Below, piece after piece: positions 2 to 63,400 of a stretch of DNA of 64,000 bases (positions are counted from its first letter, which is position 1; each line of letters starts with the position of its first letter). Source of the stretch: Candidatus Poseidoniaceae archaeon (GTDB lineage Archaea > Thermoplasmatota > Poseidoniia > Poseidoniales > Poseidoniaceae); the NCBI GenBank assembly GCA_965662895.1, contig CBFIJH010000001.1, positions 157,994-221,993 of the forward strand, written 5' to 3'. A model generated the notes under the pieces. The model worked only from the letters and a program-made list of their open reading frames with translations. It was not told where the DNA came from and made no database searches. Both the position numbers and the translations under genes were made by a program.

Positions 2-3000
2 TTGATTATTCCAAAGCGGGTCGGTGCTGAAGAAATTAGCCCGCAACAATTCCAACAAAAAGCTGAGGCATTGCTCACGCGTCATCGAACAATGGAAGGA
101 TCTTTGCTCATGCGTGAGGCAAAGAATGAGGTTCTGTTTGGCGATATCGATGTTTATGGATTGAACCAATTTTTGGAATCCTGCATCGAGGGTGATGCAC
201 GTATCGTCCACACGAAGGTGACCATACCGTCTCGACTTGGAATGAGCCTCTACATGTCTGCATTTGAGGACCTTATGTCCATGAAGACACGCGCCTTCCT
301 TGTCAAGGACATCGATCCTGAAGTTCTTCGTCGTCTAATGGGAACGCGAAGCCTTGCAACTGAGATGACCAAAGAACAACTCGACAAGTACTACAGCGAT
401 AAAGCACCCGTGCCCAATTCACCCGATTCACTGTTTGAATTGATGCAACACGGTGGTGGCCTTGACCGTCAATTCAACAACCCTTTGTATCGTGATAAAT
501 TGGATGGAATTGAACTTGAAGTCATACGTTCGTGGGTTGAAAACTTGTGCCAACGTGGCAAAATTACCAAGGTTGATGGTACTGGAGAAGCAGAAATCGA
601 TGGCAAATGGTTTAATCCATTCATGGCTGAAATCCATGGTACGCTAGCATGTCTGGCAAGCAGTGATTCGACGTCAATCATCGATCTACGAGATTATGAC
701 ACAAAGGACATGTCGTTTAACATCGCTACAAAATTTGATGGCACAACTCCAATCGAATGGGAAACGATTTCGGTCGGGGACCCGCACGAGGCATTACGGG
801 TAAAAGTTCTCGAAATTTTGGGCTCCGAAGGGCCAAAAACAACCGAAGCGCTTCAACAACGTCTTCCATTCTCTGAAAAATCCGTTGATCGGATTGTTCA
901 CGAATTGGAGACGCGTAACGTAATTTCTGTCGGATTTTTCACGCAAACAGAGGATGCTGAAGTCATTTTGAAGGTCGATGAACATCGAATCACAGGAGGA
1001 GAAGAGGACGTCGTTGAATACCGATGGATTCAGAATCTCGTGCTCGATAAATCGTTCAAAAAATACGACGATGTCTTTGAAGCATTCAATCAACACGTCT
1101 TCGTTCAGAAACAACAGGAACTCCTCTACAGAATTTCGGATTTCCGTTTCAAAGATTGGAAAGATTTGCAATTGGACTCCGATGTGATCAGTGGACGCTT
1201 GCTCCACAATCGAGTAGGATACACGACAAAGAACAACATCCCAATGCTGCTTGGTCTCAAACCCGAACCCTGGATAGGTGCAATGGAAGAAGAAGTGTTG
1301 TCAAAACTTCAACCACATGAAAACATTACACGTCAAGAATTGGTTCAAGACTTCCCGAAAGGAGAGGAACATCGACAACTTGAACGCGACGTCAAGAATG
1401 CGATTTCAAACCTAGAGCGCCAGATGCTTTTCGTCAAACAGTTTGAAGAGGTCATTGGACGAAGACGACGACTGTCGCTGTTCCACAAGGTCCACGGCGT
1501 CTACAGTCCGATGGAGTTCGAAGCTGCTCTGGAGGAGGTTGTTCGGCGGATGGGTCCTGTGAAAGCAAGCACGTTGCGATTCTATGTTTCAAGAAATTAC
1601 GAAGACCTGCTCGTAGCCCTTCACAATCTCGAAACAAGTGGCCGAATTTCAAAAGTAACGGCTCTCGTACCGGACACTGAGGACTTCTATTGCACCCCTG
1701 ATGAAGTCGAATTGTTGCAAGTTCCTCGACGAGAAGACCGTACGATTCGGATTCTAACACAATCCGATCCCTATGTCTCACGGTTCATCTGGGAGGTTCG
1801 CTCTGCTTTGGATCGAGGCTGGTATCTCCCAGTTTTCAAAGGCGTCGATCCTGTCGGCAAGGTTTTGATGTTCAAAGTCAATGATTATTTGGAGATCAAA
1901 GATATGCATGTGCCTACAGCATACTTTGAAGAATTCTGCGATGCTTTCAACGTCTTGCTTGAAAATCATGCCGACCAACTCGTCGATGTTGCAGTGTTAA
2001 GCAACGTCAACAGTGAGCCGATTTCAGAACTCAGCAAGCCTATGCGAATAGGCTTGGAACGAATCGGATTCAAGCAGGTTGGGGAACGAATGATTCGCGG
2101 TGGTGTAGTGGACCCTCAGCCAAGAGAAATTGCTGAACGTGCACTTTTTCACCAGCATCATTTGCACCAGGAAACACGTCATGAAAATGAAACGTTAGCT
2201 CTACGAACCATCAAGGAAATTCGCGACGACTTTGCCTTGCGAGGTCGATGCGAAGTCTTCCGAACGAACCTCAAATCGATGGCAAGTGCAAACCGCCTGC
2301 ATAAAGGTGTCAACATGCGTGGTCACCAGGTTTGGGCACCATACGAATACTTCGAAACATTGTTGACAATACGTGGAATCCCGCCCGAGGAAGATCTCAT
2401 TGACATCATTGAATTTTTTAGCACGCAAACCGATCCAAACATCTTCAAAGAACGACATGCTTTAACACAATCGGAATTTAGAAAACTAGTTCAGCCGCTC
2501 ATTCGAACAGGACACATCGTTGAGGATTTCCGTGGTGGTTTTCGTGCCGTCCATCCGAAAACTGACAAAGATCCTGTCCATCTTCGAAAAGAATATTTGC
2601 GAAATCTGGTCAGTGATTATCCCGTCATTACTATCAAACAGTTGTTGCGACTCTCGGGAACTCCATTCAAACCTGAAGAATTGAAGGCTGTTCTCAATGA
2701 ATTCGAAGAAGATGGTACATTGATCAAAGGATTCCTAATCGAGAATCTTCACGAAGTCTGCTGGGGGAGAAAGGAATTGCTTGAATCTGCGAAGTCCATC
2801 AATCCGATTCGAGATTTTGTCTTACCACCGACGGATCCAATCGCTCCATACTTTGGCGATGTGCTCAAAGAAAAATTCGGATTTGGCAGCGCTTATCTTG
2901 TCTTCCGTAATGCTGAACCGGTTGCTGCGTTCAAGGCGAATACTCGAAACAAGACCATCGATGTAACCGATTATGAAGGTAGCGAAAAGGGTTGGCGGGT

Positions 3001-3076
3001 TGTCAAAGAATTTGCGTGGGAGCATCAAATGCCGCTCAAGACCGAGTTGCGAATTGGTGGAAAAAAGATGAATTGA
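2..3076 (+). CDS. Large conserved protein of unknown function. It is 5'-truncated by the window edge; the visible C-terminal part is 1024 aa.
   Basis: The open frame runs from the window edge to a stop at 3076. It is acidic and has no helicase, kinase or other catalytic motifs I can recognise. Possibly the C-terminal region of a very large multidomain protein. Confidence 0.45.
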   Translation: MIIPKRVGAEEISPQQFQQKAEALLTRHRTMEGSLLMREAKNEVLFGDIDVYGLNQFLESCIEGDARIVHTKVTIPSRLGMSLYMSAFEDLMSMKTRAFLVKDIDPEVLRRLMGTRSLATEMTKEQLDKYYSDKAPVPNSPDSLFELMQHGGGLDRQFNNPLYRDKLDGIELEVIRSWVENLCQRGKITKVDGTGEAEIDGKWFNPFMAEIHGTLACLASSDSTSIIDLRDYDTKDMSFNIATKFDGTTPIEWETISVGDPHEALRVKVLEILGSEGPKTTEALQQRLPFSEKSVDRIVHELETRNVISVGFFTQTEDAEVILKVDEHRITGGEEDVVEYRWIQNLVLDKSFKKYDDVFEAFNQHVFVQKQQELLYRISDFRFKDWKDLQLDSDVISGRLLHNRVGYTTKNNIPMLLGLKPEPWIGAMEEEVLSKLQPHENITRQELVQDFPKGEEHRQLERDVKNAISNLERQMLFVKQFEEVIGRRRRLSLFHKVHGVYSPMEFEAALEEVVRRMGPVKASTLRFYVSRNYEDLLVALHNLETSGRISKVTALVPDTEDFYCTPDEVELLQVPRREDRTIRILTQSDPYVSRFIWEVRSALDRGWYLPVFKGVDPVGKVLMFKVNDYLEIKDMHVPTAYFEEFCDAFNVLLENHADQLVDVAVLSNVNSEPISELSKPMRIGLERIGFKQVGERMIRGGVVDPQPREIAERALFHQHHLHQETRHENETLALRTIKEIRDDFALRGRCEVFRTNLKSMASANRLHKGVNMRGHQVWAPYEYFETLLTIRGIPPEEDLIDIIEFFSTQTDPNIFKERHALTQSEFRKLVQPLIRTGHIVEDFRGGFRAVHPKTDKDPVHLRKEYLRNLVSDYPVITIKQLLRLSGTPFKPEELKAVLNEFEEDGTLIKGFLIENLHEVCWGRKELLESAKSINPIRDFVLPPTDPIAPYFGDVLKEKFGFGSAYLVFRNAEPVAAFKANTRNKTIDVTDYEGSEKGWRVVKEFAWEHQMPLKTELRIGGKKMN

Positions 3077-3196
3077 TTGTCTAATCATTCTACCAATTTT
3101 CCTAAACCATATTCGTCGATAGAACTCAATATGTCTCATGAATATCGATTGACACGCAGGCAATGGAGTTATGAACGTCCACTCGATGAACGAACC

Positions 3197-6100
3197 ATGG
3201 CCAGAGGCTCACCCGCCGTTGCATGTACCTTGATTCTGATGATGATTGCTTCAACCTGCTTGGTTGCACCAACCCAGGCACAATCAAGCGACATTGAAAA
3301 CATCGAAGTACTGCACACAGCAGTCAACCCTGACAACAACAAAACCTACCATCTCCTATCAGCATCATCTTGGGAAAACGCCGCATACAAAGCACGTTCA
3401 CTCGACGGATACCTAACGACCATCGACGACGTTGAAGAAAACACGTGGGTTTACGAGACCTTTGCCAGTTTTGATAATCAAAGTCGTCACCTGTGGATTG
3501 GGTTAAACGATGTCCAAGATGAGGGGATCTATCGTTGGCACGATGGGACACCGTTCTTGTACCGCAACTGGGGCGTTGACCAACCAACCGGAGGAGAAGA
3601 TTCCGACTATGTCCACATCGCTTCAACCAACATGGGCAACATCATGCCACAAACATGGAACGATTTAGAAAACAATCCTGAGTACTTCCCAGTCTACGGC
3701 GTAGTTGAAGTCGGTCGAGGTGCTGATTTCTCCCTGAGATTTGATGGGCATCATGATCACATCATCATCGACCATGATGAAGGACTCACACCAAATGGTT
3801 CCCTTAGCATCGAAGCAACCATCAAAGCAAGCAACATCGATGGCATCCGTTTTGTTACGATGAAAGGTGATTATGGATGGGGAATGTACCTCACCGACGG
3901 CGCCATTGGTTACGCCTCCGAGTACAGCCTCTCAAGACATCCTACGTCCAACATGAGCATTACTGAAAACACGTGGCATACAATCGGTGTCGAAGTCACC
4001 GAAGGCGTTGGCGGAATGTTCACCATCGACGGAATACCTGCAGGAAACATTTCGGCAGAAGATGCCAACATTCCAGAGGGTGATTTCGGTTCCAACGATT
4101 GCTACACCTCTGGTGACTCCTGCGACGAATTGTACATCGCCAGAATGGGTGCCGGTTGCGATTGTTATCATTTCGAAGGCATCATCGATGATGTCTCCAT
4201 TTCATTCTACGAAAACGACATTTGGGAGCCAGCAAGTCATTGGACTTTCTGGGAAGGTGAAGGAAGCGATACCGGCGATGCATTGAACGATGGAGCCGTG
4301 AATCGGATTGGAATTATCGACGGTGCTGACTGGGTCATGCCCGATGGCTCAATTGTCGCACAAGCATTGGAACTGCCGAACGATGAATTCCTTGTTTTGA
4401 ACGATATTCAGCAAGGTGACACACTTCTCTTTTATGCTGAACTTGATGAATACACCTACATGACGGACATCGCAATTTATTCTTGGTCTGAAATGTTTTA
4501 CGATGATTGGGATTATGAAGGGGACATGCTGTTCGATGCCTACGTTGGCTACGACCGGATTCCCGCACCTTGGGATTACGACATGGAACTAACAAGTTAT
4601 TGGGGCTCTGTTTTCAATTCATGGACTTGGCCAGAGTACGACGTTATGTGGTACTCCATCGTTGCCAACGAAGACATTGAAGAGTTGGAAATTCTTGCTT
4701 CCTGGGAAGTCGCCGCCGCCCCACCGAGTCTTGATGAGATGACAGAGTTGTACAATGGGGTGCCAATCCCATCGCAAAACATCCAATCCGATCGAAACAG
4801 TTACGAGGCTTCTCTCGAGTATTATTACGTAAACGTTACAGATTCGCTTACAGAATTGAAAATAGAAACGTATGGAGGTAAAGGGAACATTGACCTCACT
4901 CTCTCCTCTGGCGGGCCAATCGATCCAAATTACTACTACTATTATCCAGAACCTTACTACTACGACGAGTACAGTGAAAACGGTATGCAACAAGACAATG
5001 TCGCGTGGTCCATGAACGATGGAAACGACGAAGAAGTGAACCTCTTCGATGTCGAACCTGGAATTTACTACATCACAGTGTTTAGTTATCGCAAGGCTTC
5101 AGATTTTACCATAGTTGCCGATTTCACATATGCACCGGAAAACGCTGACCCATCAACAGCCATTGAACTCCAACCCGGGATTGCATACGGGCCAATGAGT
5201 GGTTATGATGGTCTTGACCAGTATTTCTTCATCGATGTACCAACCGGAACCGAACGACTTGAGGTAGATCTTGACGATGGTTTCGGGGAAGCAACGTTGC
5301 ACATGCGATATGAAAATACGCCGACCGCGAGTGAAGCCGATCACCATTCAGGTGCACCAGGTGCTGGTGATAAAATCGGTTTCAACAATCCGACACCTGG
5401 CAAGTGGTACATTCTCCTCGACTCTGAGAGCGTGTTTAGTGGCGTTTCTATTACAGCTTCTTTCGAAGACCTCTATGTTTGGGAATACGATGGCACACCG
5501 ATTGAATTGTTCAATGATGAAGACGTTCACGGACTAAGCGCACCAGCCGGAGAGGAACTCTACTTCTATGTCGATCTTGAATCCCGTGCTGAAGAATTGA
5601 TTATCACCACCTACGATGGAGAAGGTTCCCTCTACATCACTGCCGATGGTGAAATTGACTACGAAGATATCTTTGGGTTTGAGGAATTTGATGAGTTCGA
5701 ATTCTTTGAAGAAGACATCTTTGGTGAAGCATTTACTTCGTACGGGCAAGGAACCTCACACGATCTGTACATTTACTCACCTGCTGCAGGACGTTTCGAC
5801 ATCACCGTCGTTGCTGAAGACGACTTTTCTGATGTCTCAATCGTGGCTTATTGGAAAGAAGACACGCGAGAAAAGCCCGAGCCTGAGCCGCCTACCATTC
5901 TCGACCCCGATGACATCTACTCATGCGATTATGAACTCGAGGAGTTCTTTGTTGAAATGGATACAAACGGCAATGGGTTGTTGAATGCCGATGAATTCCG
6001 CCGATCTGGCCCTCCGGAAGGAACAGAGTTTTCGGATATTGATACCACTGGAGACGGCATGATTGAGTTCAATGAAGTCCTTGCCTTCGCCTGCACTTGT

Positions 6101-6820
6101 GAAAATGAGCTCGATATGATGATCGAACAACTTCCATACAAGACATCATTGGAATTCTTTGATTCTCTTGACCTGAAGAACGACTATGATTCAATCGCCA
6201 TGGATTTGAACCAAGACGAGTACATTTCACACGACGAACTTGAAGAGGCAGTTGACAAATGTACGACCACGTTTAGCCCGTTCGATACGGATGGTGATGG
6301 AATTCCAGACATCGATGATCAATTCCCGAACGATCCAAGTGAATCAAAGGATGCAGATGGTGATGGAATTGGCGACAATGCTGACTTTGCACCGAGCGTC
6401 GCAAACGATGTTGTGTACGGTGCTGGTGGTGCAGTGCTCATTGTCCTGATCGGATTACTGGTGCTCTTCTTACGAGGTGGAGGTGGAACCAGTCGACAAC
6501 AGATGGATGATGAATGGAACAAGACGGATGCATTTTCAGAACAGATGTTGAACATGAACAGTCAGATTCCAACCTCCACAACTGCTCCAAATGCGCCTGA
6601 TTTGAATGCACCAATCCTCGTATCACCACCCGCCCAAGATACGAAGATTCCGATCTATGATTTTGGCCAATCAACCATCGAAGATACGGCAAACGAACAA
6701 CCATCAAGCAGTTTGATGGGAATGATGGATGCGAACGGGCGAGAACACATCGAGTATCCGATGAACAGTGGACGCCTTTGGTACCGTGACAATCCAGATT
6801 CGGATTGGATTAAGAATTAG
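3197..6820 (+). CDS. Giant acidic cell-surface mosaic protein: signal peptide, Cys-less C-type-lectin-like domain, LamG/ConA-like domain, three PPC (pre-peptidase C-terminal) domains, EF-hand-like loops, thrombospondin type-3-like Ca repeats, C-terminal TM anchor and cytoplasmic tail.
   Basis: Start moved to the internal ATG at 3197, giving MARGSPAVACTLILMMIASTCLVAPTQA, a typical signal peptide. Other evidence:
- C-type-lectin signature: SWENAAYKARSLDGYLTTIDD..EENTWVYE...LWIGLND..EGIYRWHDGTPFLYRNWGVDQP.
- PPC-like segments ending GIYYITVFSYRKASDFTIVADF, KWYILLDSESVFSGVSITASF and RFDITVVAEDDFSDVSIVAYW.
- DTNGNGLLNADEF, DTTGDGMIEFNEV and DTDGDGIPDIDDQFPNDPSESKDADGDGIGDNADF repeats.
- TM helix GAVLIVLIGLLVLFL near the C-terminus. 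Confidence 0.8.
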   Translation: MARGSPAVACTLILMMIASTCLVAPTQAQSSDIENIEVLHTAVNPDNNKTYHLLSASSWENAAYKARSLDGYLTTIDDVEENTWVYETFASFDNQSRHLWIGLNDVQDEGIYRWHDGTPFLYRNWGVDQPTGGEDSDYVHIASTNMGNIMPQTWNDLENNPEYFPVYGVVEVGRGADFSLRFDGHHDHIIIDHDEGLTPNGSLSIEATIKASNIDGIRFVTMKGDYGWGMYLTDGAIGYASEYSLSRHPTSNMSITENTWHTIGVEVTEGVGGMFTIDGIPAGNISAEDANIPEGDFGSNDCYTSGDSCDELYIARMGAGCDCYHFEGIIDDVSISFYENDIWEPASHWTFWEGEGSDTGDALNDGAVNRIGIIDGADWVMPDGSIVAQALELPNDEFLVLNDIQQGDTLLFYAELDEYTYMTDIAIYSWSEMFYDDWDYEGDMLFDAYVGYDRIPAPWDYDMELTSYWGSVFNSWTWPEYDVMWYSIVANEDIEELEILASWEVAAAPPSLDEMTELYNGVPIPSQNIQSDRNSYEASLEYYYVNVTDSLTELKIETYGGKGNIDLTLSSGGPIDPNYYYYYPEPYYYDEYSENGMQQDNVAWSMNDGNDEEVNLFDVEPGIYYITVFSYRKASDFTIVADFTYAPENADPSTAIELQPGIAYGPMSGYDGLDQYFFIDVPTGTERLEVDLDDGFGEATLHMRYENTPTASEADHHSGAPGAGDKIGFNNPTPGKWYILLDSESVFSGVSITASFEDLYVWEYDGTPIELFNDEDVHGLSAPAGEELYFYVDLESRAEELIITTYDGEGSLYITADGEIDYEDIFGFEEFDEFEFFEEDIFGEAFTSYGQGTSHDLYIYSPAAGRFDITVVAEDDFSDVSIVAYWKEDTREKPEPEPPTILDPDDIYSCDYELEEFFVEMDTNGNGLLNADEFRRSGPPEGTEFSDIDTTGDGMIEFNEVLAFACTCENELDMMIEQLPYKTSLEFFDSLDLKNDYDSIAMDLNQDEYISHDELEEAVDKCTTTFSPFDTDGDGIPDIDDQFPNDPSESKDADGDGIGDNADFAPSVANDVVYGAGGAVLIVLIGLLVLFLRGGGGTSRQQMDDEWNKTDAFSEQMLNMNSQIPTSTTAPNAPDLNAPILVSPPAQDTKIPIYDFGQSTIEDTANEQPSSSLMGMMDANGREHIEYPMNSGRLWYRDNPDSDWIKN

Positions 6821-7760
6821 ACTTGGTTCTTTTCTTTCTCAGTCCTGCTGATTCAAGCAGCCGAAGGATGTGTCGATGCAACTCAGGAAGGAGTTCAAAC
6901 ATGGCGATGGCCATCACAAACATGGCAAACAATGAAACCACCCGTGACGCATACGAATGTCCGAATTCGAACATGGACATGCCGAGGTACTCCCATCCTT
7001 CATAGGAAAGATGCATCCAAATGAGACCAGCGTTTCTGAATAGATTCAGAATATGGATAATTGGAACAGTGAAAAGCAATGCTCGAATTCTTCGTTTTCG
7101 ATCAACGTCCAATACGGAGATTGCCCCAATAAAGACAATCATGGATTGAAGTGCCGTACACGCAAGGACGAAATTGATGCCAATAAATCCACCATCGGCC
7201 ATGACCAATTCGGTTTGGAATGGATGTTCTGCAAATCCATCGGTCATGAACCACTTGTTTCCATCCCACTCGGACCACAGAAATCTGCCTTCATCCGTAT
7301 TCACCCAAGTGTCACCGAGTTTGATGTCAACCGTCCCCGTAAACGAGAGAAAAATCGCTACTTGGGATGCTACAAACCAAATCGCGAGAACCGACAACCA
7401 CGGGATGTGAGCAACGAGCAGGTAAGGGCCACCCGCATATGCAACGCATCCACGAGCCCAATTCAGTGCAGCACGGTCACGTTCGGTAAGTGAACGTGCC
7501 TCTGCAATCACCAAGGCTACCGAGATGGGTAGGGCAAGAGCGGTCATTATGGTCAGAACAAGATCCTCAAGTTCAAAGTAATACATCGAGTCGTTGAAAA
7601 AATAGAATCCAACGAGAATCCACCCTGCCTGAGCTTGCCTCGATACACCGTCATTGTGACGTTTATGCCACGAAATGGCTAACAAAACCATTCCAAGGGC
7701 GCCGGCAATGGTGGCAACATTCTTGGAAAGGAACATGGTTCTTCCAAAACCAATCCTCAT
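6810..7760 (-). CDS. Exosortase/archaeosortase-like polytopic membrane protein (possible ArtA-type).
   Basis: About 8 predicted TM helices. There is a Cys inside a TM segment (VLACTALQSM) followed by R/N-containing helices (DRKRRIRALLFTVPIIHILNLFRNAGLIW), reminiscent of the exosortase/archaeosortase Cys-Arg-Asn arrangement. The real start may be the internal ATG near 7736. It is convergent with, and overlaps by 11 nt, the surface protein gene. Confidence 0.4.
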   Translation of the reverse strand: MRIGFGRTMFLSKNVATIAGALGMVLLAISWHKRHNDGVSRQAQAGWILVGFYFFNDSMYYFELEDLVLTIMTALALPISVALVIAEARSLTERDRAALNWARGCVAYAGGPYLLVAHIPWLSVLAIWFVASQVAIFLSFTGTVDIKLGDTWVNTDEGRFLWSEWDGNKWFMTDGFAEHPFQTELVMADGGFIGINFVLACTALQSMIVFIGAISVLDVDRKRRIRALLFTVPIIHILNLFRNAGLIWMHLSYEGWEYLGMSMFEFGHSYASRVVSLFAMFVMAIAMFELLPELHRHILRLLESAGLRKKRTKSNS

Positions 7761-13477: not shown

Positions 13478-14200
13478 GTGCAACCGAGTGGAAGAGGATA
13501 CGATCATGGAATTACGACATTTAGCCCAGACGGACGACTATTCCAAGTCGAATATGCTCGAGAATCCGTAAAGCGTGGTACAACAACGGCTGGTTTGAAA
13601 TTCAAAGAAGGCGTCGTTCTTGTCTGTGACAAGCGCATCGCATCCCGATTGATTATTCCTGAATCCATTGAAAAGATGTTCAAAATTGATGAACACGTTG
13701 GCGTGGCAACATCAGGTCTCGTAGCAGACGCCCGACAACTCGTTGCACGTGCCCGAGTCGAATCACAAATCAACCGGATCACCTATGCAGACACTGTGCC
13801 AGTCGATGTATTGGTCAAGAAAATTTGCGACTTCAAGCAATCCTTTACTCAATACGGAGGTTCTCGTCCATTCGGTACAGCACTGTTGATTGGTGGTGTT
13901 GACGATGAAGGCATTCATCTCTATGAGACGGACCCATCAGGAGCATACCAATCCTATCACGCAGGAGCAATCGGTAGCAACCGAAATACAGTTATCGAAT
14001 ACTTCGAAAAGAATTGGAAGGCTGGAATGACCCTGAATGCAGCAATGAAAATGGGACTTGAAGCCCTACGTTCTGCAAATGATGCCGAATTAAATCGCGA
14101 AGCGGTTGAAGTTGTCGTTGTTGATGGCAACGGATATCGAATCCTTGACCGTGGTGAAGTCAACAAGCAACTTGATCGTCTCAAACCTCTTGAAGACTGA
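13478..14200 (+). CDS. psmA: Proteasome subunit alpha.
   Basis: GTG start giving MQPSGRGYDHGITTFSPDGRLFQVEYA, the canonical alpha-subunit N-terminus; 240 aa. Confidence 0.9.
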   Translation: MQPSGRGYDHGITTFSPDGRLFQVEYARESVKRGTTTAGLKFKEGVVLVCDKRIASRLIIPESIEKMFKIDEHVGVATSGLVADARQLVARARVESQINRITYADTVPVDVLVKKICDFKQSFTQYGGSRPFGTALLIGGVDDEGIHLYETDPSGAYQSYHAGAIGSNRNTVIEYFEKNWKAGMTLNAAMKMGLEALRSANDAELNREAVEVVVVDGNGYRILDRGEVNKQLDRLKPLED

Positions 14201-14235
14201 ACAAGTTCTTGTGTACCCTCAAACAAGGTGACCAC

Positions 14236-14928
14236 ATGGTCAGTCTCGATGATGCCGTGCTTGCTCGTCTGGAAAAGGGCGGTAAACGCTACGAAGCGCT
14301 CGTTGATCCAGATCTTGTTGAACAGTGGAAAGAAGATTCTTCCAGCATTGAACTGGATGAGTTCATGGCAATGGATGAAATCTTTCACGATGCACGGGCG
14401 GGTGAACGACCAACTGAAGATGCACTGATGAAAACCTTCCAATCGCTCGATGTTGCGACCATCCTCAACATCATTCTTGATAAAGGGTCAATTCAACTCA
14501 CAACCGCACAAAGAAAAGCACGCGTTGAAAACATTCGGCAACAAATTATTCATCACATTCACAGCCAAGCCATCGACCCGAAGAGTAAGTCTCCACACCC
14601 ACGAACACGCATTGAGTTGGCGCTTGATGAATCGAAGTACTCTGTCGACCCATTCAAGCGACTTGAAGATCAAGTCAAAGATGCAATTGCGAAACTGAAA
14701 CCACTTATCCCTCTTAGTTTCGAATCGGTTCGGCTCGCATTCCGAATTCCAGGAAGTGCCTATGGAAGCGTGAGTCAATTGCTTCGGCCTTACCAAAAGA
14801 AAGAGCAATGGCTTGAGAACGGAGATTGGGCGTGTGTTGTTGAGTTTCCTGCAGGGATGAAAGGCGACATGATCGGTCAAGTTCTCAAACGAGCAAACGA
14901 TGCGGAAGTCAAAGAATTGTCCTCATGA
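14236..14928 (+). CDS. sdo1: Ribosome maturation protein SDO1/SBDS homolog.
   Basis: MVSLDDAVLARLEKGGKRYEALVDP matches the SBDS N-terminal domain. Its position after psmA and before rrp4 is the conserved archaeal superoperon order. Start moved to the internal ATG at 14236. Confidence 0.8.
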   Translation: MVSLDDAVLARLEKGGKRYEALVDPDLVEQWKEDSSSIELDEFMAMDEIFHDARAGERPTEDALMKTFQSLDVATILNIILDKGSIQLTTAQRKARVENIRQQIIHHIHSQAIDPKSKSPHPRTRIELALDESKYSVDPFKRLEDQVKDAIAKLKPLIPLSFESVRLAFRIPGSAYGSVSQLLRPYQKKEQWLENGDWACVVEFPAGMKGDMIGQVLKRANDAEVKELSS

Positions 14929-14952
14929 CAAAAGGGTGCCCTTTATCATGGG

Positions 14953-15669
14953 ATGTCGAGTGGGCGGAATGGAGAGAAAAGAATGTCCAAAGGTCAAGTT
15001 GGCGCCGAGCAGCGCCTCGTGACCCCGGGAATGGTCATCGGACCATCATCCGGGAAGCGAGCAGGTTCTGGTACGATTGCTGAAAACAATGAATTCATTG
15101 CCACCCGATTGGGATGGCTCAATGAACAGAACGATGTCGTTTCTGTTTCGCCAATTAACAGCGCATACATGCCACGTTCAGGTGACCTTATCATCGGATT
15201 TGTGGCTGAAGTTCGCAACAATCTCTGGTTCTTCGATGTCAACGGACCGTTCCAAGCATTGCTTCCAATGTCCCTCGCACCTTGGAAGGTTGAATTTGGT
15301 TCGACCCGACAACACCTCGGAATCGGTGACGCTGCGCTAGCTCGCATTCAGGAAGTTGATGAAACGCACAACATGGTTCTCACCATGAAGGGCGTTGGAC
15401 TTCGACGCCTCAACGAAGGCGCCGTTGTCTCAATTCCAGTCAATTTAATCGATACCATTCGGGGCCAAAACAACACCATGCTTAGCCGAATTCGTGATGC
15501 TACCAATTGTCGCATCATCGTCGGTGACAATGGTCGTGTATGGATTCACGGAGATGCAGCAGACATGCATGTTGCACGACATTTGGTTCAAACTCTCAAC
15601 GAAGAGGGACACAAAAACACATTCGAAGGTGCGGTCGAAGCACTTGAAAACGAACGAGGTGAACACTGA
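14953..15669 (+). CDS. rrp4: Exosome complex RNA-binding subunit Rrp4 (S1 + KH).
   Basis: Conserved position between SBDS and rrp41, with S1 and KH-like segments. The stop overlaps the rrp41 start (ATGA). Confidence 0.8.
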   Translation: MSSGRNGEKRMSKGQVGAEQRLVTPGMVIGPSSGKRAGSGTIAENNEFIATRLGWLNEQNDVVSVSPINSAYMPRSGDLIIGFVAEVRNNLWFFDVNGPFQALLPMSLAPWKVEFGSTRQHLGIGDAALARIQEVDETHNMVLTMKGVGLRRLNEGAVVSIPVNLIDTIRGQNNTMLSRIRDATNCRIIVGDNGRVWIHGDAADMHVARHLVQTLNEEGHKNTFEGAVEALENERGEH

Positions 15670-16397
15670 TGGGTGGATATGGAGACGTAAAATTACTACG
15701 AGAAGATGGAAAACGACTTGATGGTCGAGCAATCGATGAGATGCGACCGGTAACGATTGAAGCAGGGGTCCTCCCTGCTGCTGATGGTTCGGCCATGGTT
15801 ACACATGGACTGAACGTTGCAGTTGCAGCGGTTTATGGACCGATGGAAGCGCACCCTCGAAAGATTCAGCGACAAGATCGTGCTGTCATTGACGTACGTT
15901 ACAATATGGCACCGTTTTCAACCGGCGACCGAATTCGACCAGGATTCAATCGACGAAGCCGTGAAATCTCAAAGGTCACCGCTGAATCACTGGAATCCGT
16001 TGTTCTCGTTGAGCGCTACCCACGTTCAAAGATTCGTGTTGAAATCGAAATCCTCGCTGCAGAGGCAGGAACGCGATGCGCAGGAATCACTGCAGCATCT
16101 GTTGCTCTTGCTGACGCTGGAATTCCTATGCGAGACATGATTGTCGGTGTCGCCTCTGGTAAGATTGAGGACACGGTTGTTCTTGACCTTGACAAGGCAG
16201 AAGACAACTATGGTCAAGCCGACCTACCCGTTGGCATTCTTCCGAACACTGGCGAGATTGCTTTCCTACAAATGGATGGTGACCTTTCCATCGATGAGTA
16301 CAATCTCGCAATGGAGTACAACTACAAAGCAGCCAAAGAAATCCATGAAATCATGGTTGATGCTCTCAAGCGACGATACGAAGGAGGTGAAGCCTGA
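15669..16397 (+). CDS. rrp41: Exosome complex exonuclease Rrp41 (RNase PH-like).
   Basis: LLREDGKRLDGRAIDEMRP, the typical Rrp41 N-terminus, within an RNase PH fold. Confidence 0.9.
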   Translation: MGGYGDVKLLREDGKRLDGRAIDEMRPVTIEAGVLPAADGSAMVTHGLNVAVAAVYGPMEAHPRKIQRQDRAVIDVRYNMAPFSTGDRIRPGFNRRSREISKVTAESLESVVLVERYPRSKIRVEIEILAAEAGTRCAGITAASVALADAGIPMRDMIVGVASGKIEDTVVLDLDKAEDNYGQADLPVGILPNTGEIAFLQMDGDLSIDEYNLAMEYNYKAAKEIHEIMVDALKRRYEGGEA

Positions 16398-17182
16398 TGG
16401 TTGAACTCGTTCCTTCCCTCTTGCGACAAGAGCTTAACCGTCTCGCTGCCGATGGCCAGCGAATTGATGGACGTGGTCAATTCGATGGACGTGAAGTTCA
16501 TCTTGAAGTCGATTGTTTGTACAATGCTGAAGGATCTGCAAAAGTTGTTTGGGGAGACACCATCATTTATGCTGGTGTCAAGTTCGAAATTCGAACTCCG
16601 TGGCCAGACCGACCCACACAAGGTTCACTCATGTGTGGTGCAGAACTTCGTCCTGTCGCTCACCGAAAGTACGAACCAGGCCCACCATCGCCACAATCCA
16701 TCGAACTCGGTCGAGTTGTTGATCGTGGAATCCGTGAATCCGGATGCATCGACATGGAAGAACTGTGCATTGTACCTGGAGAGAAAGTCTGGGGTGTTAT
16801 GATCGACATCCACGTTCTCTCCGATGGAGGCAACATCTTCGATGCAGCGGGGCTCGCAGCCATTGCTGCTCTCCGAACAGCTGTTGTTCCTGCCGAGCGC
16901 TTTGATGTTGGTGAAGACCACGTCTTGAAGGTCAATGGAACACCAATTATGGCATCGTTCAAACGTGCAGGAGGACGCTTTGTTTACGACCCCAGCGAAG
17001 ATGAAGAACTTGGTGGAGACGAGCGAATTCATATCACATTGGGTGATGAAGGTCACCTCCACTCACTACAGAAGGGGCTAAAAGGAGTCTTCACTCCGGA
17101 CGAATTTGCCGAGATTCTAGCGGTCGCCGAACAAAAGTGCAGTGAACTGAGAGAAATGGTGGCAGAAAAGGAGGGGAACTGA
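16397..17182 (+). CDS. rrp42: Exosome complex subunit Rrp42 (inactive RNase PH-like).
   Basis: LRQELNRLAADGQRIDGRGQFDGREV, translationally coupled to rrp41 (ATGA overlap). Confidence 0.85.
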   Translation: MVELVPSLLRQELNRLAADGQRIDGRGQFDGREVHLEVDCLYNAEGSAKVVWGDTIIYAGVKFEIRTPWPDRPTQGSLMCGAELRPVAHRKYEPGPPSPQSIELGRVVDRGIRESGCIDMEELCIVPGEKVWGVMIDIHVLSDGGNIFDAAGLAAIAALRTAVVPAERFDVGEDHVLKVNGTPIMASFKRAGGRFVYDPSEDEELGGDERIHITLGDEGHLHSLQKGLKGVFTPDEFAEILAVAEQKCSELREMVAEKEGN

Positions 17183-36006: not shown

Positions 36007-36714
36007 ATGATTACAAAAGAAAGCAACGTAGTAATCTTGACAGGTGCTGGCGTTAGCGCAGAATCGGGAATTCAAACGTTTCGGGCTTCGGATGGGCTTT
36101 GGGAAAACCACCGCATCGAAGAGGTAGCAACACCTGAGGGGTGGGAAGCCAACCCCAAACTTGTGTGGAATTTTTACCAACAACGGCGAAGACAATTGTT
36201 GGAAGTTGAGCCAAACCCTGGACACTTCGCTCTTGCTGATCTGGAAAATCATATCGAGCATTTTCTTCTTGTTACGCAAAATGTTGACAACTTGCATGAA
36301 CGTGCTGGGTCGAAGAATCTTATCCATATGCACGGTGAACTGGAAAAACTTCGATGCGAGCATTGTGGGCGAGTTGAAACAATGATGCAAGAGGACCATT
36401 TTGGGGATGAGCTTGTTGCGTGCAATGGGTGCGGAAATCATGTTCGGCCACACATCGTTTGGTTCAATGAAATGCCTTTTGAATTGGCAAGAATCTACGA
36501 GGCAATAGCAGAGTGTGACATCTTCATCGCAATCGGAACAAGCGGACACGTTTATCCTGCAAGTGGATTCTTACAAAGAGCGCGTCTTGCTGGAGCTCAC
36601 ACAATCGGGATCAACCTGGACCCTCCTGAAAACGTGTTTTTCTTTGATGAATTTATCCAAGGAAAAGCGGGTGAAATCTTGCCTATGCTCGTTAAAAAAT
36701 GGTTTGGCAATTAA
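36007..36714 (+). CDS. cobB: NAD-dependent protein deacylase, Sir2 family.
   Basis: GAGVSAESGIQTFR, VTQNVDNLHERAG and the Zn site CEHCG...CNGCG. Confidence 0.85.
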   Translation: MITKESNVVILTGAGVSAESGIQTFRASDGLWENHRIEEVATPEGWEANPKLVWNFYQQRRRQLLEVEPNPGHFALADLENHIEHFLLVTQNVDNLHERAGSKNLIHMHGELEKLRCEHCGRVETMMQEDHFGDELVACNGCGNHVRPHIVWFNEMPFELARIYEAIAECDIFIAIGTSGHVYPASGFLQRARLAGAHTIGINLDPPENVFFFDEFIQGKAGEILPMLVKKWFGN

Positions 36715-36781
36715 TTGTTGGTCAGCGATTGGAGTGTTGAGGTTGAGCAATGTTTTTTCTTCTCGGCTTACAGGTGAACCC

Positions 36782-38974
36782 ATGGCAGTTCGACCGTTGT
36801 TTGTGTTCGTATCAATTGGCCTGCTGATTGCTTTGTCAGGAACGACGCTCGTTGAAGCGCAAGAACAGGACCAGTCTGATGAAATCGTACGAATCGTGAT
36901 GCTGCCTCCTGAAGCAGAAGCCACGGGAATGTTTGTCGACGAGCAAGGTCGATTTTTTGTCAACGCCATGCATCCTGACCCAGACGACTACAAGGCAACC
37001 ATCGGCGTCATCAACGGTATTGATTGGAACAGCCTCTCTAATACGATTCCTTCACTCGATTCATCGAGTCAACCGAGTGATGTTTGGCATGGAATTCGAA
37101 CGAGTAGTGGGGAGTATCAAGTTCTTCTCCAATCAGGTGATTTGATGACGGATGGTACGCTTGCTGGCGGAATTTATTCTGTCGATGACGGTCAACAAAT
37201 TCTCCTAAGTGAAAAACCAGATTTCAATGCATTCGTTCCAACTGAAGATAATGGGAGCAGAGGGTTCCTCTACACTGCATGGGAAGATCGACCGGCCGGA
37301 CTGAGTCAAATCCAAATCGAGTGGAACATGTCGTCCAATCAATGGGATGTTCTCGATAGTCAGATGCTCAATCTCTCTAAAATAAATGGGGCTTGGGTTC
37401 TGTGTTTCGGGAGTGTGAGCCCATGGGGTACACCGTTGTTCTCAGAAGAATTGTATTTTGACGATACTGAAAACTGGAACAATCCGAATTTCCGGTACCA
37501 TTCCGATCAATTGCGACTCGAGCGTTACCTTGGTTACTATCCAAATCCGTACGATTATGGATTTATCATCGAAATGAACGAAGCGACCACAACAACGCCA
37601 GAACTTGTTCGACATCTTGCTATGGGCCGATTTTCACACGAAAATGCCCTCGTTATGCCGGACCACAAAACGGTTTACTTGACCGATGATGGATACGAGA
37701 CGGTGTTGTTCAAATTTGTTGCAGATGTTCCGGGGGACTTGACGGAGGGAACACTGTTCGCTGCGAAACTCATTCAAGATGGTTCATGGGACGCATCGAT
37801 CACAGGCTTCGATACCGAATGGATTGAGTTGGCTTCAGCTTCAAATGCGGACGTCCAATCTTGGATTGACGAATACGATGGAATTTCCACAACCGACTAT
37901 GTGGAAGGAGAAAATGCATACATTACGGACGAGGAGATCAACAATTGGGCTGAGGGACGTTTGAACCAAGACCTGAACAACGATGGAATCGTCGGATACG
38001 CTCTCGATGACCGTGTCGCATTTCTCGAATCACGAAAGGCTGCTGCGGCGATCGGGGCGACCGATGAATGGAACAAAATGGAAGGTGTTGCATTCAACGA
38101 GAATGCTCCCGAGCACATGTATCTGGCCATGTCCAATATTGGCAATGCTATGACAGATGGTCAAGGCGATATCGACGTCTCGCTTAACTCCTGTGGAATC
38201 GTTTACAGAATGGCTACTGACAACCAATGGGATGTTCACCGAATAGAACCGGCCATTGTTGGTGGACCGTATCTCTCTTCAGCGGAATACAAGTGCAGCA
38301 TCGACAATCTCGCAGGACCTGATAACATCCTTGTCCTCGACGATGGAAGCGTATTGGTTGGTGAGGACACCAGATATCATAAGCACAATATGGTTTGGCT
38401 TTGGCGAGAATTCATCAATCCTGTCGTTGAAGTCGATGAACAAATTCGAATCACAACGTTAAATCTTTCAGACAATCCTTCCTCCTTGGTTTCTCCATGG
38501 ACATACTCATACCAAGCTGTAGTTGATGATCTGGCCTTTGATACCACCTACACAGCAATCGTTGTTGCAAAGAACATCAGCAGTGGGGAATGGAGTGGTG
38601 TTTGGTGGTGGAACGATATTTCTGAAACCGGTCAACAATACAATCTTCAAATTTCTTTGAACAGAGGATGCTATATGATCGAAACTACCCTTTACGAGAA
38701 AGACGACTTGGATGTAGATGCTGGGAATGCGACAGTTCTCTCAAGTGTTCAAAGAAACCTCACGGTAGGCAATGGGGATTGTGTCGATGGAACCTATACT
38801 GAAGCGGTTGAAGTCGAATCAGTTCCTAAAGACACAATCGAATCAAACAACGCTCCAGGCTTTGCTTTTACTCTTCTCAGTGCTTCCATTTGTTTGGGAT
38901 TGTTCTTCGCAAATCAGGAAAGAGAACATACTTGCAACAACAACCAAGTTCAAGAGCAACCACCAATTGAGTGA
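36782..38974 (+). CDS. Secreted beta-propeller-like protein (possibly DUF839/PhoX-like) with a PGF-CTERM-like C-terminal anchor.
   Basis: Signal peptide MAVRPLFVFVSIGLLIALSGTTLVEA; start set at 36782 because the upstream frame overlaps cobB. The C-terminus reads NNAPGFAFTLLSASICLGLFFANQEREHTCNNNQVQEQPPIE, i.e. PGF + TM helix + a 20-aa acidic tail. Confidence 0.55.
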   Translation: MAVRPLFVFVSIGLLIALSGTTLVEAQEQDQSDEIVRIVMLPPEAEATGMFVDEQGRFFVNAMHPDPDDYKATIGVINGIDWNSLSNTIPSLDSSSQPSDVWHGIRTSSGEYQVLLQSGDLMTDGTLAGGIYSVDDGQQILLSEKPDFNAFVPTEDNGSRGFLYTAWEDRPAGLSQIQIEWNMSSNQWDVLDSQMLNLSKINGAWVLCFGSVSPWGTPLFSEELYFDDTENWNNPNFRYHSDQLRLERYLGYYPNPYDYGFIIEMNEATTTTPELVRHLAMGRFSHENALVMPDHKTVYLTDDGYETVLFKFVADVPGDLTEGTLFAAKLIQDGSWDASITGFDTEWIELASASNADVQSWIDEYDGISTTDYVEGENAYITDEEINNWAEGRLNQDLNNDGIVGYALDDRVAFLESRKAAAAIGATDEWNKMEGVAFNENAPEHMYLAMSNIGNAMTDGQGDIDVSLNSCGIVYRMATDNQWDVHRIEPAIVGGPYLSSAEYKCSIDNLAGPDNILVLDDGSVLVGEDTRYHKHNMVWLWREFINPVVEVDEQIRITTLNLSDNPSSLVSPWTYSYQAVVDDLAFDTTYTAIVVAKNISSGEWSGVWWWNDISETGQQYNLQISLNRGCYMIETTLYEKDDLDVDAGNATVLSSVQRNLTVGNGDCVDGTYTEAVEVESVPKDTIESNNAPGFAFTLLSASICLGLFFANQEREHTCNNNQVQEQPPIE

Positions 38975-60400: not shown

Positions 60401-60473
60401 AGCCCGATGGTGTAGTGGTCCATCATGGTGGGTTTTGGTCCCGCCGACCTCGGTTCGAATCCGAGTCGGGCTA
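60401..60473 (+). tRNA. tRNA-Gln (anticodon UUG).
   Basis: Manually folded. Acceptor AGCCCGA/UCGGGCU, with an A1-U72 base pair. Anticodon stem GUGGG/CCCGC with loop UU-UUG-GU. T-arm CUCGG-UUCGAAU-CCGAG. 4-nt variable loop, discriminator A, no encoded CCA. D-stem pairing is imperfect. Confidence 0.7.
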
Positions 60474-60521
60474 CTTTCCCACATACGCAACTTCATCAAT
60501 CGCTTGCGTTTCGACCTTTAC

Positions 60522-61960: not shown

Positions 61961-63400
61961 TCAGTTTTCTGCACCAGGAGTTGGGCCAGTTGTGTATCCC
62001 CAAACTCCTGTGTTGTCCATGACGTAGACATCATCGGAAGTATCTGGAAGTGCACCTGATCCATGGATAAGGTCACCCGATGAGGTGTACAAAGAAGCAG
62101 AATCATCGCCTCCAATGCCGAAGGCAAATTGCGCATCTCCACTTGTCGAATCATCATTGCACAGGAGCATGTATTCTCCCGCAGCAAGTGAGGTGCCAGA
62201 TGCAAACGTGTACTGGTCTTCATCTCCGAATCCTTTGGAGTCAACAACGACCATGCCAGACAAATCCATAGAGGATGCTCCGTAGTTCCAGATTTCGATC
62301 CAGTCTTCGGTGTCTCCACTGCCATCAGAGTTCAAGCAAGTTCCAGCACTTCCCTTGTTTGCAACTTCGTTGATTACGAGGGTGGTTGCATAACAGTTGT
62401 TTGCAGCACCTGGTGTTGAACCGTGTGGTCCCGAAGTTTGGACGCCGTTTGAACAATCAAATTCAGTTGAACCTGCTTCGTCTCCAAGTGTGTCGTAGTC
62501 CGTTTCAGTGCCATCAGGAGCCCTTAGGTGAACAGTGTCGCCACTGCCCTTGATACCAAATCCAAAGACTTGGGAATCAGCACCACTGCATACGCCTTCA
62601 CAGAACCACATGTAACCGTTCGCGGAAATTGTATCTCCACTCACGAAAACGATGCGCTCATCGCACTTGGATGTCCCTACTCCGCCAATGGCGTCACAGT
62701 CTTCCTTGACGCCCTTGTCGTAAATTTGGAAACCGTCAAGATCGCACTCAGCACCTGAGTTGTGGATTTCAATCCAGTCCTCTGGAGCACCGCCACCATG
62801 CATCTCTGAGATGGTGATTGCAGATGCAGTACATGCTGGCGTGCCTGATGTTGAGCCTCCAGTTGTTCCGCCAGTGTTGCCACCTGTGTTTCCTCCAAGT
62901 CCAGCAAGGGTTATTTCTGTGCTTTCATAGATGAGTTTGTTTGATGCTCGGTCGAGGACCTTCACTTGAATTAAACAGACTCCTCCACCATCGCAAAGGT
63001 TGTCTGTTCCTTCGCTAATGGTTACTTCTTCGCCAAAAGTCCACTTGCCATCGTTGTTGTCCGTTACTGCACAAACTGTTTCAACAGATTTGCCTGGGTT
63101 TGTACACTCCGTGTAGGAACTATCTTCAGCAGAGAGTTGGACGACGACAGTCGACCATGAGAGATCTTCACCTGCCTCCATCGATACGTAGGCAAGTGCT
63201 TCGCCTGAATCGCTTGACAACGACGTTCCAGAATCCCTGACTTCGAAGTCATACATCGAGAAGTCACCGTCTGTGTTTCCTTCTGCTAGCTGCGATGCCC
63301 AGACGTAGAGTACGCCAGACAACACAACAGTGATTGCAACCATCAAAATCGTTGCAATAACTGGGCTAACCGCTTTTTCATTCATTTTCATTTCTTTCAT
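61961..63400 (-). CDS. Archaeal type IV pilin-like surface protein: class III signal peptide, pilin N-terminal helix and two lamin-tail (LTD) domains.
   Basis: The N-terminal MKEMKMNEKAVSPVIATILMVAITVVLSGVLYVW matches the archaeal pilin N-terminal domain with a prepilin peptidase site before VSPVIAT. The LTD-like motifs are GGAPEDWIEIHNSGAECDLDGFQIYDKG and GDTEDWIEIWNYGASSMDLSGMVVVDSKG. Confidence 0.65.
   Translation of the reverse strand: MKEMKMNEKAVSPVIATILMVAITVVLSGVLYVWASQLAEGNTDGDFSMYDFEVRDSGTSLSSDSGEALAYVSMEAGEDLSWSTVVVQLSAEDSSYTECTNPGKSVETVCAVTDNNDGKWTFGEEVTISEGTDNLCDGGGVCLIQVKVLDRASNKLIYESTEITLAGLGGNTGGNTGGTTGGSTSGTPACTASAITISEMHGGGAPEDWIEIHNSGAECDLDGFQIYDKGVKEDCDAIGGVGTSKCDERIVFVSGDTISANGYMWFCEGVCSGADSQVFGFGIKGSGDTVHLRAPDGTETDYDTLGDEAGSTEFDCSNGVQTSGPHGSTPGAANNCYATTLVINEVANKGSAGTCLNSDGSGDTEDWIEIWNYGASSMDLSGMVVVDSKGFGDEDQYTFASGTSLAAGEYMLLCNDDSTSGDAQFAFGIGGDDSASLYTSSGDLIHGSGALPDTSDDVYVMDNTGVWGYTTGPTPGAEN

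Follow-up and report, generated by a model that had tools for sequence, protein, structure and literature searches.

A conserved Poseidoniales type-I membrane protein with a cysteine-free C-type lectin head, a predicted calcium-stiffened stalk and a cytoplasmic tail motif common to other surface proteins

The gene considered here lies near the start of a 64,000-nucleotide stretch of Candidatus Poseidoniaceae archaeon DNA (assembly GCA_965662895.1, contig CBFIJH010000001.1, positions 157,994 to 221,993; hereafter the window) and encodes a protein that is exported and spans the membrane once; this protein has a lectin-family head (a C-type lectin domain, CTLD), a LamG-type jelly roll, four PPC-type beta-sandwiches, a block of Ca2+ loops and a conserved cytoplasmic terminus. 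It is an old, fixed locus of Marine Group II (Poseidoniales). We give roughly an even chance to the proposal that Poseidoniales conserve the protein as a type-I membrane lectin or adhesin, Ca2+-stiffened and selectin-like, whose tail would dock to a cytoplasmic partner; on the features described below, a carbohydrate- or particle-binding adhesin is the most plausible function.

The reading frame is unbroken (stop to stop, 3077-6820; start ATG at 3197), and a search of 5.8 billion proteins at E <= 1e-5 matched 330 relatives (clusters), the best 120 of which are 1192-1343 residues long, 46-98% identical to the query and, in nearly all cases, cover at least 97% of it. Because collinear, full-length orthologues of ~1200 residues exist, hidden frameshifts and a pseudogene are excluded, and the single intact 1207-residue frame described in a first-pass annotation of the window, made from the letters alone, stands. 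Conservation was read from an alignment of the query with 32 orthologues (33 members). The three best-conserved segments, measured as identity to distant orthologues, are the CTLD (68%), the second PPC domain (68%) and the stretch of thrombospondin-type-3 (TSP3) loops (70%); the other ectodomain modules lie at 35-56% and the tail linker at 16%. Only two segments are hydrophobic by hydropathy, the N-terminal signal and residues 1076-1093, and the signal peptide varies in sequence among orthologues while retaining its hydrophobic character. The gene and the parts of its product, all on the + strand, are as follows.

3197..6820 (including the stop codon), +: gene for the 1207-residue type-I membrane protein (open reading frame (ORF) call and full-length orthologues)
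3197..3280, +: signal peptide, residues 1-28, with R3 in the n-region, a hydrophobic core and the end APTQA before Q (hydropathy; putative cleavage site)
3281..3721, +: Cys-free CTLD, residues 29-175 (Pfam Lectin_C), with LWIGL at 99-103, QPT at 129-131 and WND at 154-156
3722..4384, +: LamG/pentraxin-like (concanavalin-A-like) jelly roll, residues 176-396, with invariant Cys 302, 309, 321 and 323
4385..4732, +: fourth, divergent PPC-like beta-sandwich, residues 397-512, W/Y-rich and acidic (hhalign to PPC3 92.4%, E 5e-7; no Pfam match)
4754..5146, +: PPC domain 1, residues 520-650 (Pfam PPC 35.3 bits; beta-sandwich in the AlphaFold2 (AF2) model)
5159..5476, +: PPC domain 2, residues 655-760 (Pfam PPC 41.7 bits)
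5489..5872, +: PPC domain 3, residues 765-892 (no Pfam match; hhalign to PPC1 97.4%, E 1e-11, and to PPC2 88%; AF2 beta-sandwich at a predicted local distance difference test (pLDDT) of 84-94)
5909..6274, +: EF-hand module, residues 905-1026, with Ca loops at 922-933, 949-960 and 1003-1014 and invariant Cys 910, 966, 968 and 1022
6278..6388, +: two TSP3-like DxDxDG loops, residues 1028-1064 (DTDGDG at 1030, DADGDG at 1052)
6389..6475, +: juxtamembrane motif APSVANDxxY and transmembrane (TM) helix (~1075-1093), then an invariant Arg (hydropathy; AF2 helix 1065-1093; alignment)
6476..6712, +: cytoplasmic linker, residues 1094-1172, disordered (pLDDT 32-44)
6713..6817, +: C-terminal cytoplasmic motif, residues 1173-1207, LMGMxDxxGxExIEYPxxSGxxWxRxxPxxxWxK

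The head is recognized by Pfam Lectin_C (PF00059) at 37.1 bits with the whole protein and 41.9 bits with the segment (cut-off 22.6); the family is matched in all 33 orthologues, and CTLDs were found among PDB matches as well. There is no Cys in residues 29-175 of the query or in this domain of the other 32 aligned orthologues, and the canonical disulfides C1-C4 and C2-C3 are thus missing. Because eight invariant Cys occur elsewhere in the same ectodomain (four in the LamG domain and four in the EF-hand module of the 33 aligned members), their absence from the head is a property of the domain and not of the organism. Q129, P130, W154, N155 and D156 are invariant, the triplet reading QP[TS] throughout the family, and the ligand-loop half of the CTLD (residues 125-171) is its most invariant stretch, with 25 of 47 positions unchanged. 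This pattern argues for one conserved ligand; sugar binding is not proven by it.

When the family CTLD profile was run exhaustively against 1.84 billion representatives with HMMER, 16,013 proteins matched at E <= 0.001. The best single domains outside the family (80-115 bits, n = 56) include 38 that lack Cys and none that has four or more. Cys-free bacterial CTLDs score 65-136 bits against the Poseidoniales profile, whereas domains with at least four Cys, the animal type, score mostly 20-40 bits. A second search, seeded with eight bacterial CTLDs, gave at least 2,111 clusters at E <= 1e-10; as the nearest CTLD clusters are named only 'hypothetical protein', the taxonomy was taken from gene context and named entries, and the sources named are Verrucomicrobiota, Limisphaerales, Tepidisphaerales, Pyrinomonadaceae and Candidatus Sulfotelmatobacter. 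The 120 listed of these clusters are 170-260 residues long, some with a PEP-CTERM domain, and contribute 121 domains: 89 are Cys-free and no domain has as many as four, 118 retain W[NS]D, and the triplet is EPN in 57, EPV in 33 and QPD in 10 (EPN or QPD in 67 of 121). Since the closest bacterial CTLDs are mostly Cys-free too, the disulfides define the animal subclass and not the Pfam family as a whole, and by its profile scores the Poseidoniales CTLD is placed in a very large Cys-free prokaryotic class rather than with the disulfide-bonded animal kind.

The first-pass annotation was right to call a C-type-lectin-like domain devoid of Cys, but it had singled out the lack of Cys and presented the domain combination as more typical of animal extracellular matrix proteins than of archaea. 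Neither framing survives: the lack is the norm for the prokaryotic class and is not forced by the organism, the profile scores favor the bacterial domains, and the pairing of Lectin_C with Laminin_G_3 occurs in a bacterium. The latter case, found among the loci collected for this analysis (numbered with an L), is a 1920-residue protein (L083, 6001-11763) whose two CTLDs, N-terminal and Cys-free, precede Laminin_G_3 and Ig domains. Its contig of 2.25 Mb carries DUF1501, DUF1800 and cytochrome-c/HEAT genes next to it, and from this context we infer a bacterium of the Planctomycetota-Verrucomicrobiota-Chlamydiota (PVC) type. As the nearest CTLD-plus-LamG head architecture outside archaea, it hints at a bacterial origin of the head module. 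Another top CTLD match is a 393-residue protein with two CTLDs and a faint precomputed PEP-CTERM match.

When one genome per GTDB species was scanned, full-length copies of the gene, which across Poseidoniales are 43-98% identical and encode ~1200 residues, were confined to Poseidoniales-type contigs, and the gene was present in every sampled genome of both named families wherever the contig spans the locus. The order Lhr (+), lectin gene (+), archaeosortase A (-), HAD phosphatase (+), TiaS (+) is kept in 34 of the 35 loci that reach past the gene. Architecture and locus are therefore fixed across the order, and 'mosaic', the word of the first description, does not fit the protein if it means a recently assembled or variable one. 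A lectin diversified by a diversity-generating retroelement, like the C-type-lectin-fold variable proteins of some archaea and phages, was considered and rejected, the CTLD being among the most conserved segments. No reverse transcriptase was seen among the neighboring genes scanned or looked up. A phage collection searched with the CTLD and LamG domains yielded only a Flavobacterium phage lectin, at 29% identity, and no link to a Poseidoniales virus.

Behind the head, query segment 176-396 gave no match to Laminin_G_3 (PF13385) or any other Pfam family. Laminin_G_3 was matched in 11 of the 33 orthologues (best E 1.8e-10), and Foldseek with the three-domain model (LamG part at pLDDT mostly 80-94) returned 4dqa, PTX3, laminin LG4-5 and neurexin LNS2 at E 1e-8 to 1e-6 and probability 1.0, which upholds the LamG call; one of the fold matches is a Bacteroides carbohydrate-binding protein. 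Foldseek was run on two multi-domain models; most matches go to the folds that are largest or recur (LamG; CUB, PPC and neuropilin arrays), and nothing separate can be read from them on the CTLD or the tail. The PPC domains, three by the earlier count, are confirmed as such by Pfam and hhalign but number four, including the divergent copy at 397-512: two exceed the Pfam PPC (PF04151) cut-off of 25.9 bits, and two are linked by hhalign. The lectin assignment and two of the PPC assignments hold above Pfam cut-offs. The collagenase PPC structure 5sv5 is among the Foldseek matches (template-modeling score 0.75 on the target) and probably maps to residues 397-512. Two low-confidence insertions interrupt the sandwiches, the Tyr-rich YYYYYPEPYYYDEY run at 579-592 in PPC1 (pLDDT <50) and an acidic F/E-rich run at 828-840 in PPC3; these strings, like WIGL (100-103) and WND (154-156), were located as previously quoted.

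Where orthologues carry a name, it is 'pre-peptidase C-terminal domain-containing protein', from Candidatus Poseidoniaceae or Thalassarchaeaceae archaea. That name, given by NCBI to several orthologues, and the four PPC-type domains would suit a precursor or accessory of a secreted protease, but we find this reading scarcely credible: no peptidase domain was detected by Pfam or NCBIfam scans in the query or the 33 orthologues, and the PPC domains are internal rather than C-terminal to a catalytic domain.

The membrane-proximal part of the ectodomain is a calcium-binding block. EF-hand loops had been correctly called, with EF-hand_1 (PF00036) at 46 bits over three stretches and EF-hand_7 (PF13499) at 39 bits in the segment scan; the module is modeled as helical (pLDDT 84-91), and its PDB matches are calmodulin, polcalcin and SCaMC. 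Of the TSP3 repeats proposed alongside, two DxDxDG loops are present, at 1030 and 1052, but the stretch scores 21.1 bits with Pfam TSP_3 (PF02412; E 2.5e-4), under the cut-off of 25. At least five Ca2+-loop motifs thus lie near the membrane. TSP3-type repeats were also matched in many marine bacteria and in Poseidoniales paralogues, and the stalk and anchor-proximal domains likewise occur in bacterial surface proteins in these searches.

The anchor is as first described, namely one TM helix with a cytoplasmic tail of ~110 residues; no conserved lipobox Cys and no PGF-CTERM were found in the query and aligned orthologues or by the NCBIfam scan. Two features of this end of the gene had been overlooked, a conserved motif at the end of the tail that is common to other surface proteins and an overlapping archaeosortase A (ArtA) gene.

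6810..7760, -: archaeosortase A gene, convergent, with an 11-nt overlap at the lectin gene's 3' end (NCBIfam TIGR04125 95.4 bits, cut-off 75; exo_archaeo signature 54.7 bits)

The linker after the TM helix is conserved only at a juxtamembrane W...SExML patch, in which W1107 and M1117 are invariant. The terminal motif has invariant G, E, P, G, W, R and W and is modeled as short strands of beta-hairpin type (pLDDT 75-89); neither Pfam nor a PDB profile search gave a significant match to it. A WW-domain identity was a visual impression only and, with nothing significant in the PDB profile search and Pfam scans, is not claimed. A search of the 5.8-billion-protein collection with the motif returned four short fragments only, as its word index cannot seed a degenerate motif of 40 residues. 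A hidden Markov model (HMM) of the motif, run against all ORFs in 890 kb of collected locus sequence, matched only extreme C-termini, 0-2 residues from the end, in the orthologues and in seven other ORFs.

L038 399-5474, L039 2-2533, L040 3684-6983, L057 2-2218, L066 2-3007, L076 3273-6377 and L082 3567-6704: seven non-orthologous ORFs of 739-1692 residues with the tail motif (tail HMM), two of them cut by a contig end

In these ORFs the motif reads G.E..E[YW]P..SG.WW.R......W and in most of them it follows TSP3 repeats and a TM helix (one, for example, ends in DGYEVVEYPDGSGNWWWRDPNTGNWNEWT and a stop). The three of the seven that were scanned with Pfam (L038, L040 and L082) have ectodomains with TSP3 repeats or Ig-like domains and are otherwise unannotated. 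We tentatively suggest, as a proposal with a low chance of being right, that Poseidoniales have lineage-specific 'tail-tagged' type-I surface proteins, in which unrelated ectodomains (this lectin and at least seven large ORFs) share one C-terminal cassette that docks to one cytoplasmic partner. In the cassette, a TM helix, in most cases preceded by TSP3 loops, would lead into a linker, disordered or helical, and then a motif of ~35 residues, G.E.[IL]E[YW]P..SG..W.R......W. If so, the tag would serve these archaea as a dedicated means of placing receptors on the surface or of linking external contact to the inside of the cell, parallel to the ArtA/PGF-CTERM lipid anchoring used by other TSP3-bearing proteins of the same genomes; as a docking tag, it would be a new feature of archaeal surface-protein organization. 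A second type of tail, LPxGWTxEQWxYYG, is found on other Poseidoniales surface proteins with TSP3 repeats and a TM helix (L042 2079-5471, L043 195-3563, L064 1329-3758, L045 964-3417).

The same tail could be read as the output end of a sensor, with ligand binding passed through the single TM helix to the tail motif and a signaling protein recruited there, that is, as outside-in signaling and not mechanical adhesion. The conserved terminal motif and juxtamembrane patch are compatible with such a role, and the membrane-adjacent EF-hands could serve as a Ca2+ switch. We consider a sensor quite unlikely. Since the motif occurs on unrelated ectodomains, it looks more like a general tag for docking or positioning than a signal tied to one ligand. 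The linker shows neither order nor conservation, some orthologues have a different tail ending, and Pfam scans of the query found no kinase, HAMP, PAS or other signaling domain.

Because the archaeosortase A gene overlaps the lectin gene at its 3' end, we considered whether the lectin could itself be an ArtA substrate, with APSVANDxxY[GS]AGG, the TM helix and the following Arg acting as a non-canonical signal, such that the ectodomain is cleaved and lipid-anchored and the TM helix and tail are released. All three signal elements are conserved, and the two genes are adjacent in 34 of 35 loci. Nevertheless, this reading is improbable. The protein has no PGF motif, and no sorting-signal model is among its NCBIfam matches even at E <= 1; its TM helix is followed by ~110 residues ending in a conserved motif, whereas sorting signals are C-terminal. 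The whole Lhr to TiaS block is syntenic, and in seven loci (L009, L012-L015, L019 and L025) an unrelated gene of ~380 codons, an NADH:flavin oxidoreductase (Oxidored_FMN, 210 bits in L014), stands between the two. Moreover, ArtA has ordinary PGF-CTERM proteins at its disposal. Four paralogues carry a PGF-CTERM directly after TSP3 repeats (L051 2109-5258, ending in SLPGFSISSVIISIICACMVVRRKL and a stop; L056 2178-5261; L060 2118-5258; L065 1137-2909) and are the likely true ArtA substrates. The window itself encodes a PhoX-type alkaline phosphatase at 36515-38974 (+; Pfam PhoX 105 bits) that ends in APGF, a hydrophobic helix and a 20-residue acidic tail (ANQEREHTCNNNQVQEQPPIE and a stop); the NCBIfam scan reported no sorting signal for this PGF-like anchor.

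Returning to the adhesin that we favor, its proposed mode of action would begin with export through the Sec-type signal peptide. The CTLD would then sit at the distal N-terminal tip, its presumed Ca2+/sugar site formed by QP[T/S], WND and the loop between them, on a stalk of four PPC-type beta-sandwiches with the EF-hand/TSP3 block proximal to the membrane. In seawater the calcium block would be Ca2+-saturated, holding the stalk rigid and extended; on a rough estimate for eight domains in series, it would be tens of nm long. The head could bind a conserved glycan on particles, algal exudates or glycoproteins, and binding would tether the cell or retain high-molecular-weight substrate at its surface; through the C-terminal motif, the receptor would dock to a shared cytoplasmic partner that anchors it, positions it or provides outside-in coupling. 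A role in tethering or substrate concentration fits the lifestyle of Marine Group II, which is photoheterotrophic, polymer-degrading and partly particle-associated (PMC6461757, PMC6336850, PMC6864105), and 'widespread thrombospondin genes' in Poseidoniales have been taken as evidence of adhesion (Rinke et al., PMC6461757).

Several observations weigh against this proposal. The third residue of the sugar-site triplet is Thr/Ser, in place of the Asn/Asp of EPN/QPD, so canonical Ca2+-dependent sugar binding is not assured. Helices and strands are placed as expected in the AF2 model of residues 29-100, but the long loop of the CTLD was modeled at pLDDT <50, which makes the geometry of the Ca2+/sugar site unreliable in the model, and no CTLD is among the 50 listed Foldseek matches to the three-domain model, almost all of which are LamG/pentraxin-type jelly rolls. 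The tail does not have a uniform function, because some orthologues carry other endings: one Poseidoniaceae subclade has a shorter tail that ends in VPPALDLGPP..DMKVSDLYD and a stop (L016, L017, L018, L022, L028, L033, L035 and L036), and in L034 and L037 LPGxPLEWR and a stop replace the common motif. We found no paper describing the lectin family or the tail motif in the literature searched. Finally, one locus kept in all sampled clades, including reportedly mostly free-living ones, fits a housekeeping role in the envelope at least as well as a niche-specific adhesin.

The main rival is accordingly a structural envelope protein, an S-layer-like canopy or stalk, or an organizer of the glycocalyx, whose head would bind the cell's own surface glycans or neighboring copies and whose array would be held by Ca2+, any adhesion to foreign surfaces being secondary. 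In addition to the single conserved locus, several properties would suit this idea just as well. The protein has many Ca2+ sites and, as the first-pass annotation had stressed, is extremely acidic: its computed pI is 4.05, with 19.8% D+E and 3.6% K+R against window medians of 13.7% and 10.3% (45 main ORFs), a poverty in Lys and Arg that is similar in other exported proteins encoded in the window. It has a signal peptide and a C-terminal membrane anchor like archaeal S-layer glycoproteins, an N-glycosylation sequon (N48-x-T50) that is invariant in the aligned orthologues, and a gene adjoining that of archaeosortase A, which in Haloferax carries out maturation of the S-layer glycoprotein. No Marine Group II S-layer protein is described in the literature searched, and no paper linking Poseidoniales with C-type lectins, archaeosortase or an S-layer was found there. 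Still, a lectin head on a stalk with a conserved cytoplasmic tail is the layout of a receptor and not of a lattice former, the strongest conservation lies in the ligand-type loop, the ~1050 ectodomain residues hold only six sequons, and the adjacency to ArtA belongs to a larger housekeeping block that the flavin oxidoreductase gene interrupts in seven loci. We therefore regard the envelope role as unlikely, though a possibility to be taken seriously.

A few loci depart from the common picture. L003 (CAXQWT010000099.1, labeled as a Salipiger bermudensis metagenome-assembled genome (MAG)) and L030 (CALDQY010000164.1, labeled as a Rhodobiaceae MAG) contain genes of the Poseidoniales block (Lhr or lectin, ArtA, HAD, TiaS) that are 62-93% identical to those of the window; because the neighboring genes are archaeal, both contigs are almost certainly mis-binned, a probable contamination of bacterial MAGs in public records. 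L027 1-2388 is a Poseidoniaceae copy with 42% identity, cut by the contig start, that lacks ArtA, HAD and TiaS in the 5 kb downstream and may be a paralogue or a rearrangement.

The window is archaeal in origin, since it contains the following cluster, and further archaeal neighbors are the C-terminal part of an Lhr-type helicase, TiaS and diphthamide synthase.

13478-17182, +: archaeal gene cluster for proteasome alpha, SBDS and the exosome subunits Rrp4, Rrp41 and Rrp42

Upstream of the lectin gene, positions 2-3076 (+) encode the last 1024 residues of the very long Lhr-type helicase (1610-1761 residues in relatives), which includes an AlkZ-like DNA glycosylase region (Pfam AlkZ-like, 32 bits). 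Positions 60401-60474 encode a tRNA-Gln. At 61961-63400 (-) is a 479-residue, very acidic protein (K+R 3.5%) that combines two lamin-tail domains (LTD) with the N-terminal domain of archaeal type IV pilins; it is a further candidate surface or adhesion protein.

Marine Group II are the most abundant archaea of surface oceans and are uncultured, and a conserved, syntenic lectin is a concrete candidate for their contact with particles or algae. It offers a defined target for glycan-binding tests, antibody- or lectin-based cell sorting and enrichment, and metaproteomic quantification. The combination of CTLD, LamG, TSP3 and EF-hand in a marine prokaryote represents a bacterial-type domain repertoire and not animal-like biology. 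The value of the lectin lies in the concrete, conserved point of entry that it gives to the surface biology of an order of archaea that is abundant yet uncultured, and in the cytoplasmic motif that it shares with other surface proteins.

The closest known counterparts of the head are the Cys-free bacterial CTLD proteins annotated as 'C-type lectin domain-containing', 'lectin-like' or 'PEP-CTERM sorting domain-containing' in Verrucomicrobiota, Planctomycetota and Acidobacteriota, which belong to the same CTLD subclass and share the motif series NPxN[GN]HxY.LL, LWIGL, W..G[EQ]P., WND and YGVVEV; the Poseidoniales domain bears the hallmarks of the class at its start (NPxNNxTYHLL) and end (VYGVVEV). 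The bacterial proteins are likewise surface-anchored, some being annotated as lectin-like or with a PEP-CTERM anchor. However, many are single-domain proteins of 170-260 residues, their triplet is mostly EPN, EPV or QPD and not QPT/QPS, and they are without the PPC/EF-hand/TSP3 stalk, TM helix and tail motif of the Poseidoniales lectin. We know of no functional study of this bacterial class. The animal C-type lectin receptors (mannose-receptor family, PLA2R, DEC-205, DC-SIGN) have Pfam Lectin_C, the WIGL core and the WND of Ca2+ site 2 in common with the Poseidoniales CTLD, but the latter lacks both canonical disulfides and has QPT/QPS for EPN/QPD, and there is no homology beyond the CTLD. In selectins, an N-terminal lectin head stands on a stalk in which small domains repeat, followed by one TM helix and a short tail in the cytoplasm; judged by analogy of layout, the resemblance of the Poseidoniales lectin to them is convergent.

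Parts of the stalk and anchor also have parallels. The PPC/collagen-binding domains of clostridial collagenase (ColG s3a-s3b) are similarly tandem, Ca2+-binding beta-sandwiches of the PPC superfamily (Foldseek 5sv5, 5iku), but the Poseidoniales lectin has no peptidase domain, and its four PPC copies form the internal stalk of a membrane protein. Bacterial TSP3 repeats (MtsC and MtsD of Myxococcus; OmpA-like proteins) share the DxDxDGxxDxxD calcium loops, which in the lectin adjoin the membrane anchor; compared with thrombospondin type-3 repeats, the lectin has two loops only, with a sub-threshold Pfam score and without the Cys of animal TSP3. The Haloferax volcanii S-layer glycoprotein and other ArtA substrates are, like the lectin, acidic, Sec-exported and C-terminally anchored archaeal surface proteins, and an ArtA gene adjoins that of the lectin; in place of a PGF-CTERM, the Poseidoniales lectin has a TM helix followed by a conserved cytoplasmic tail.

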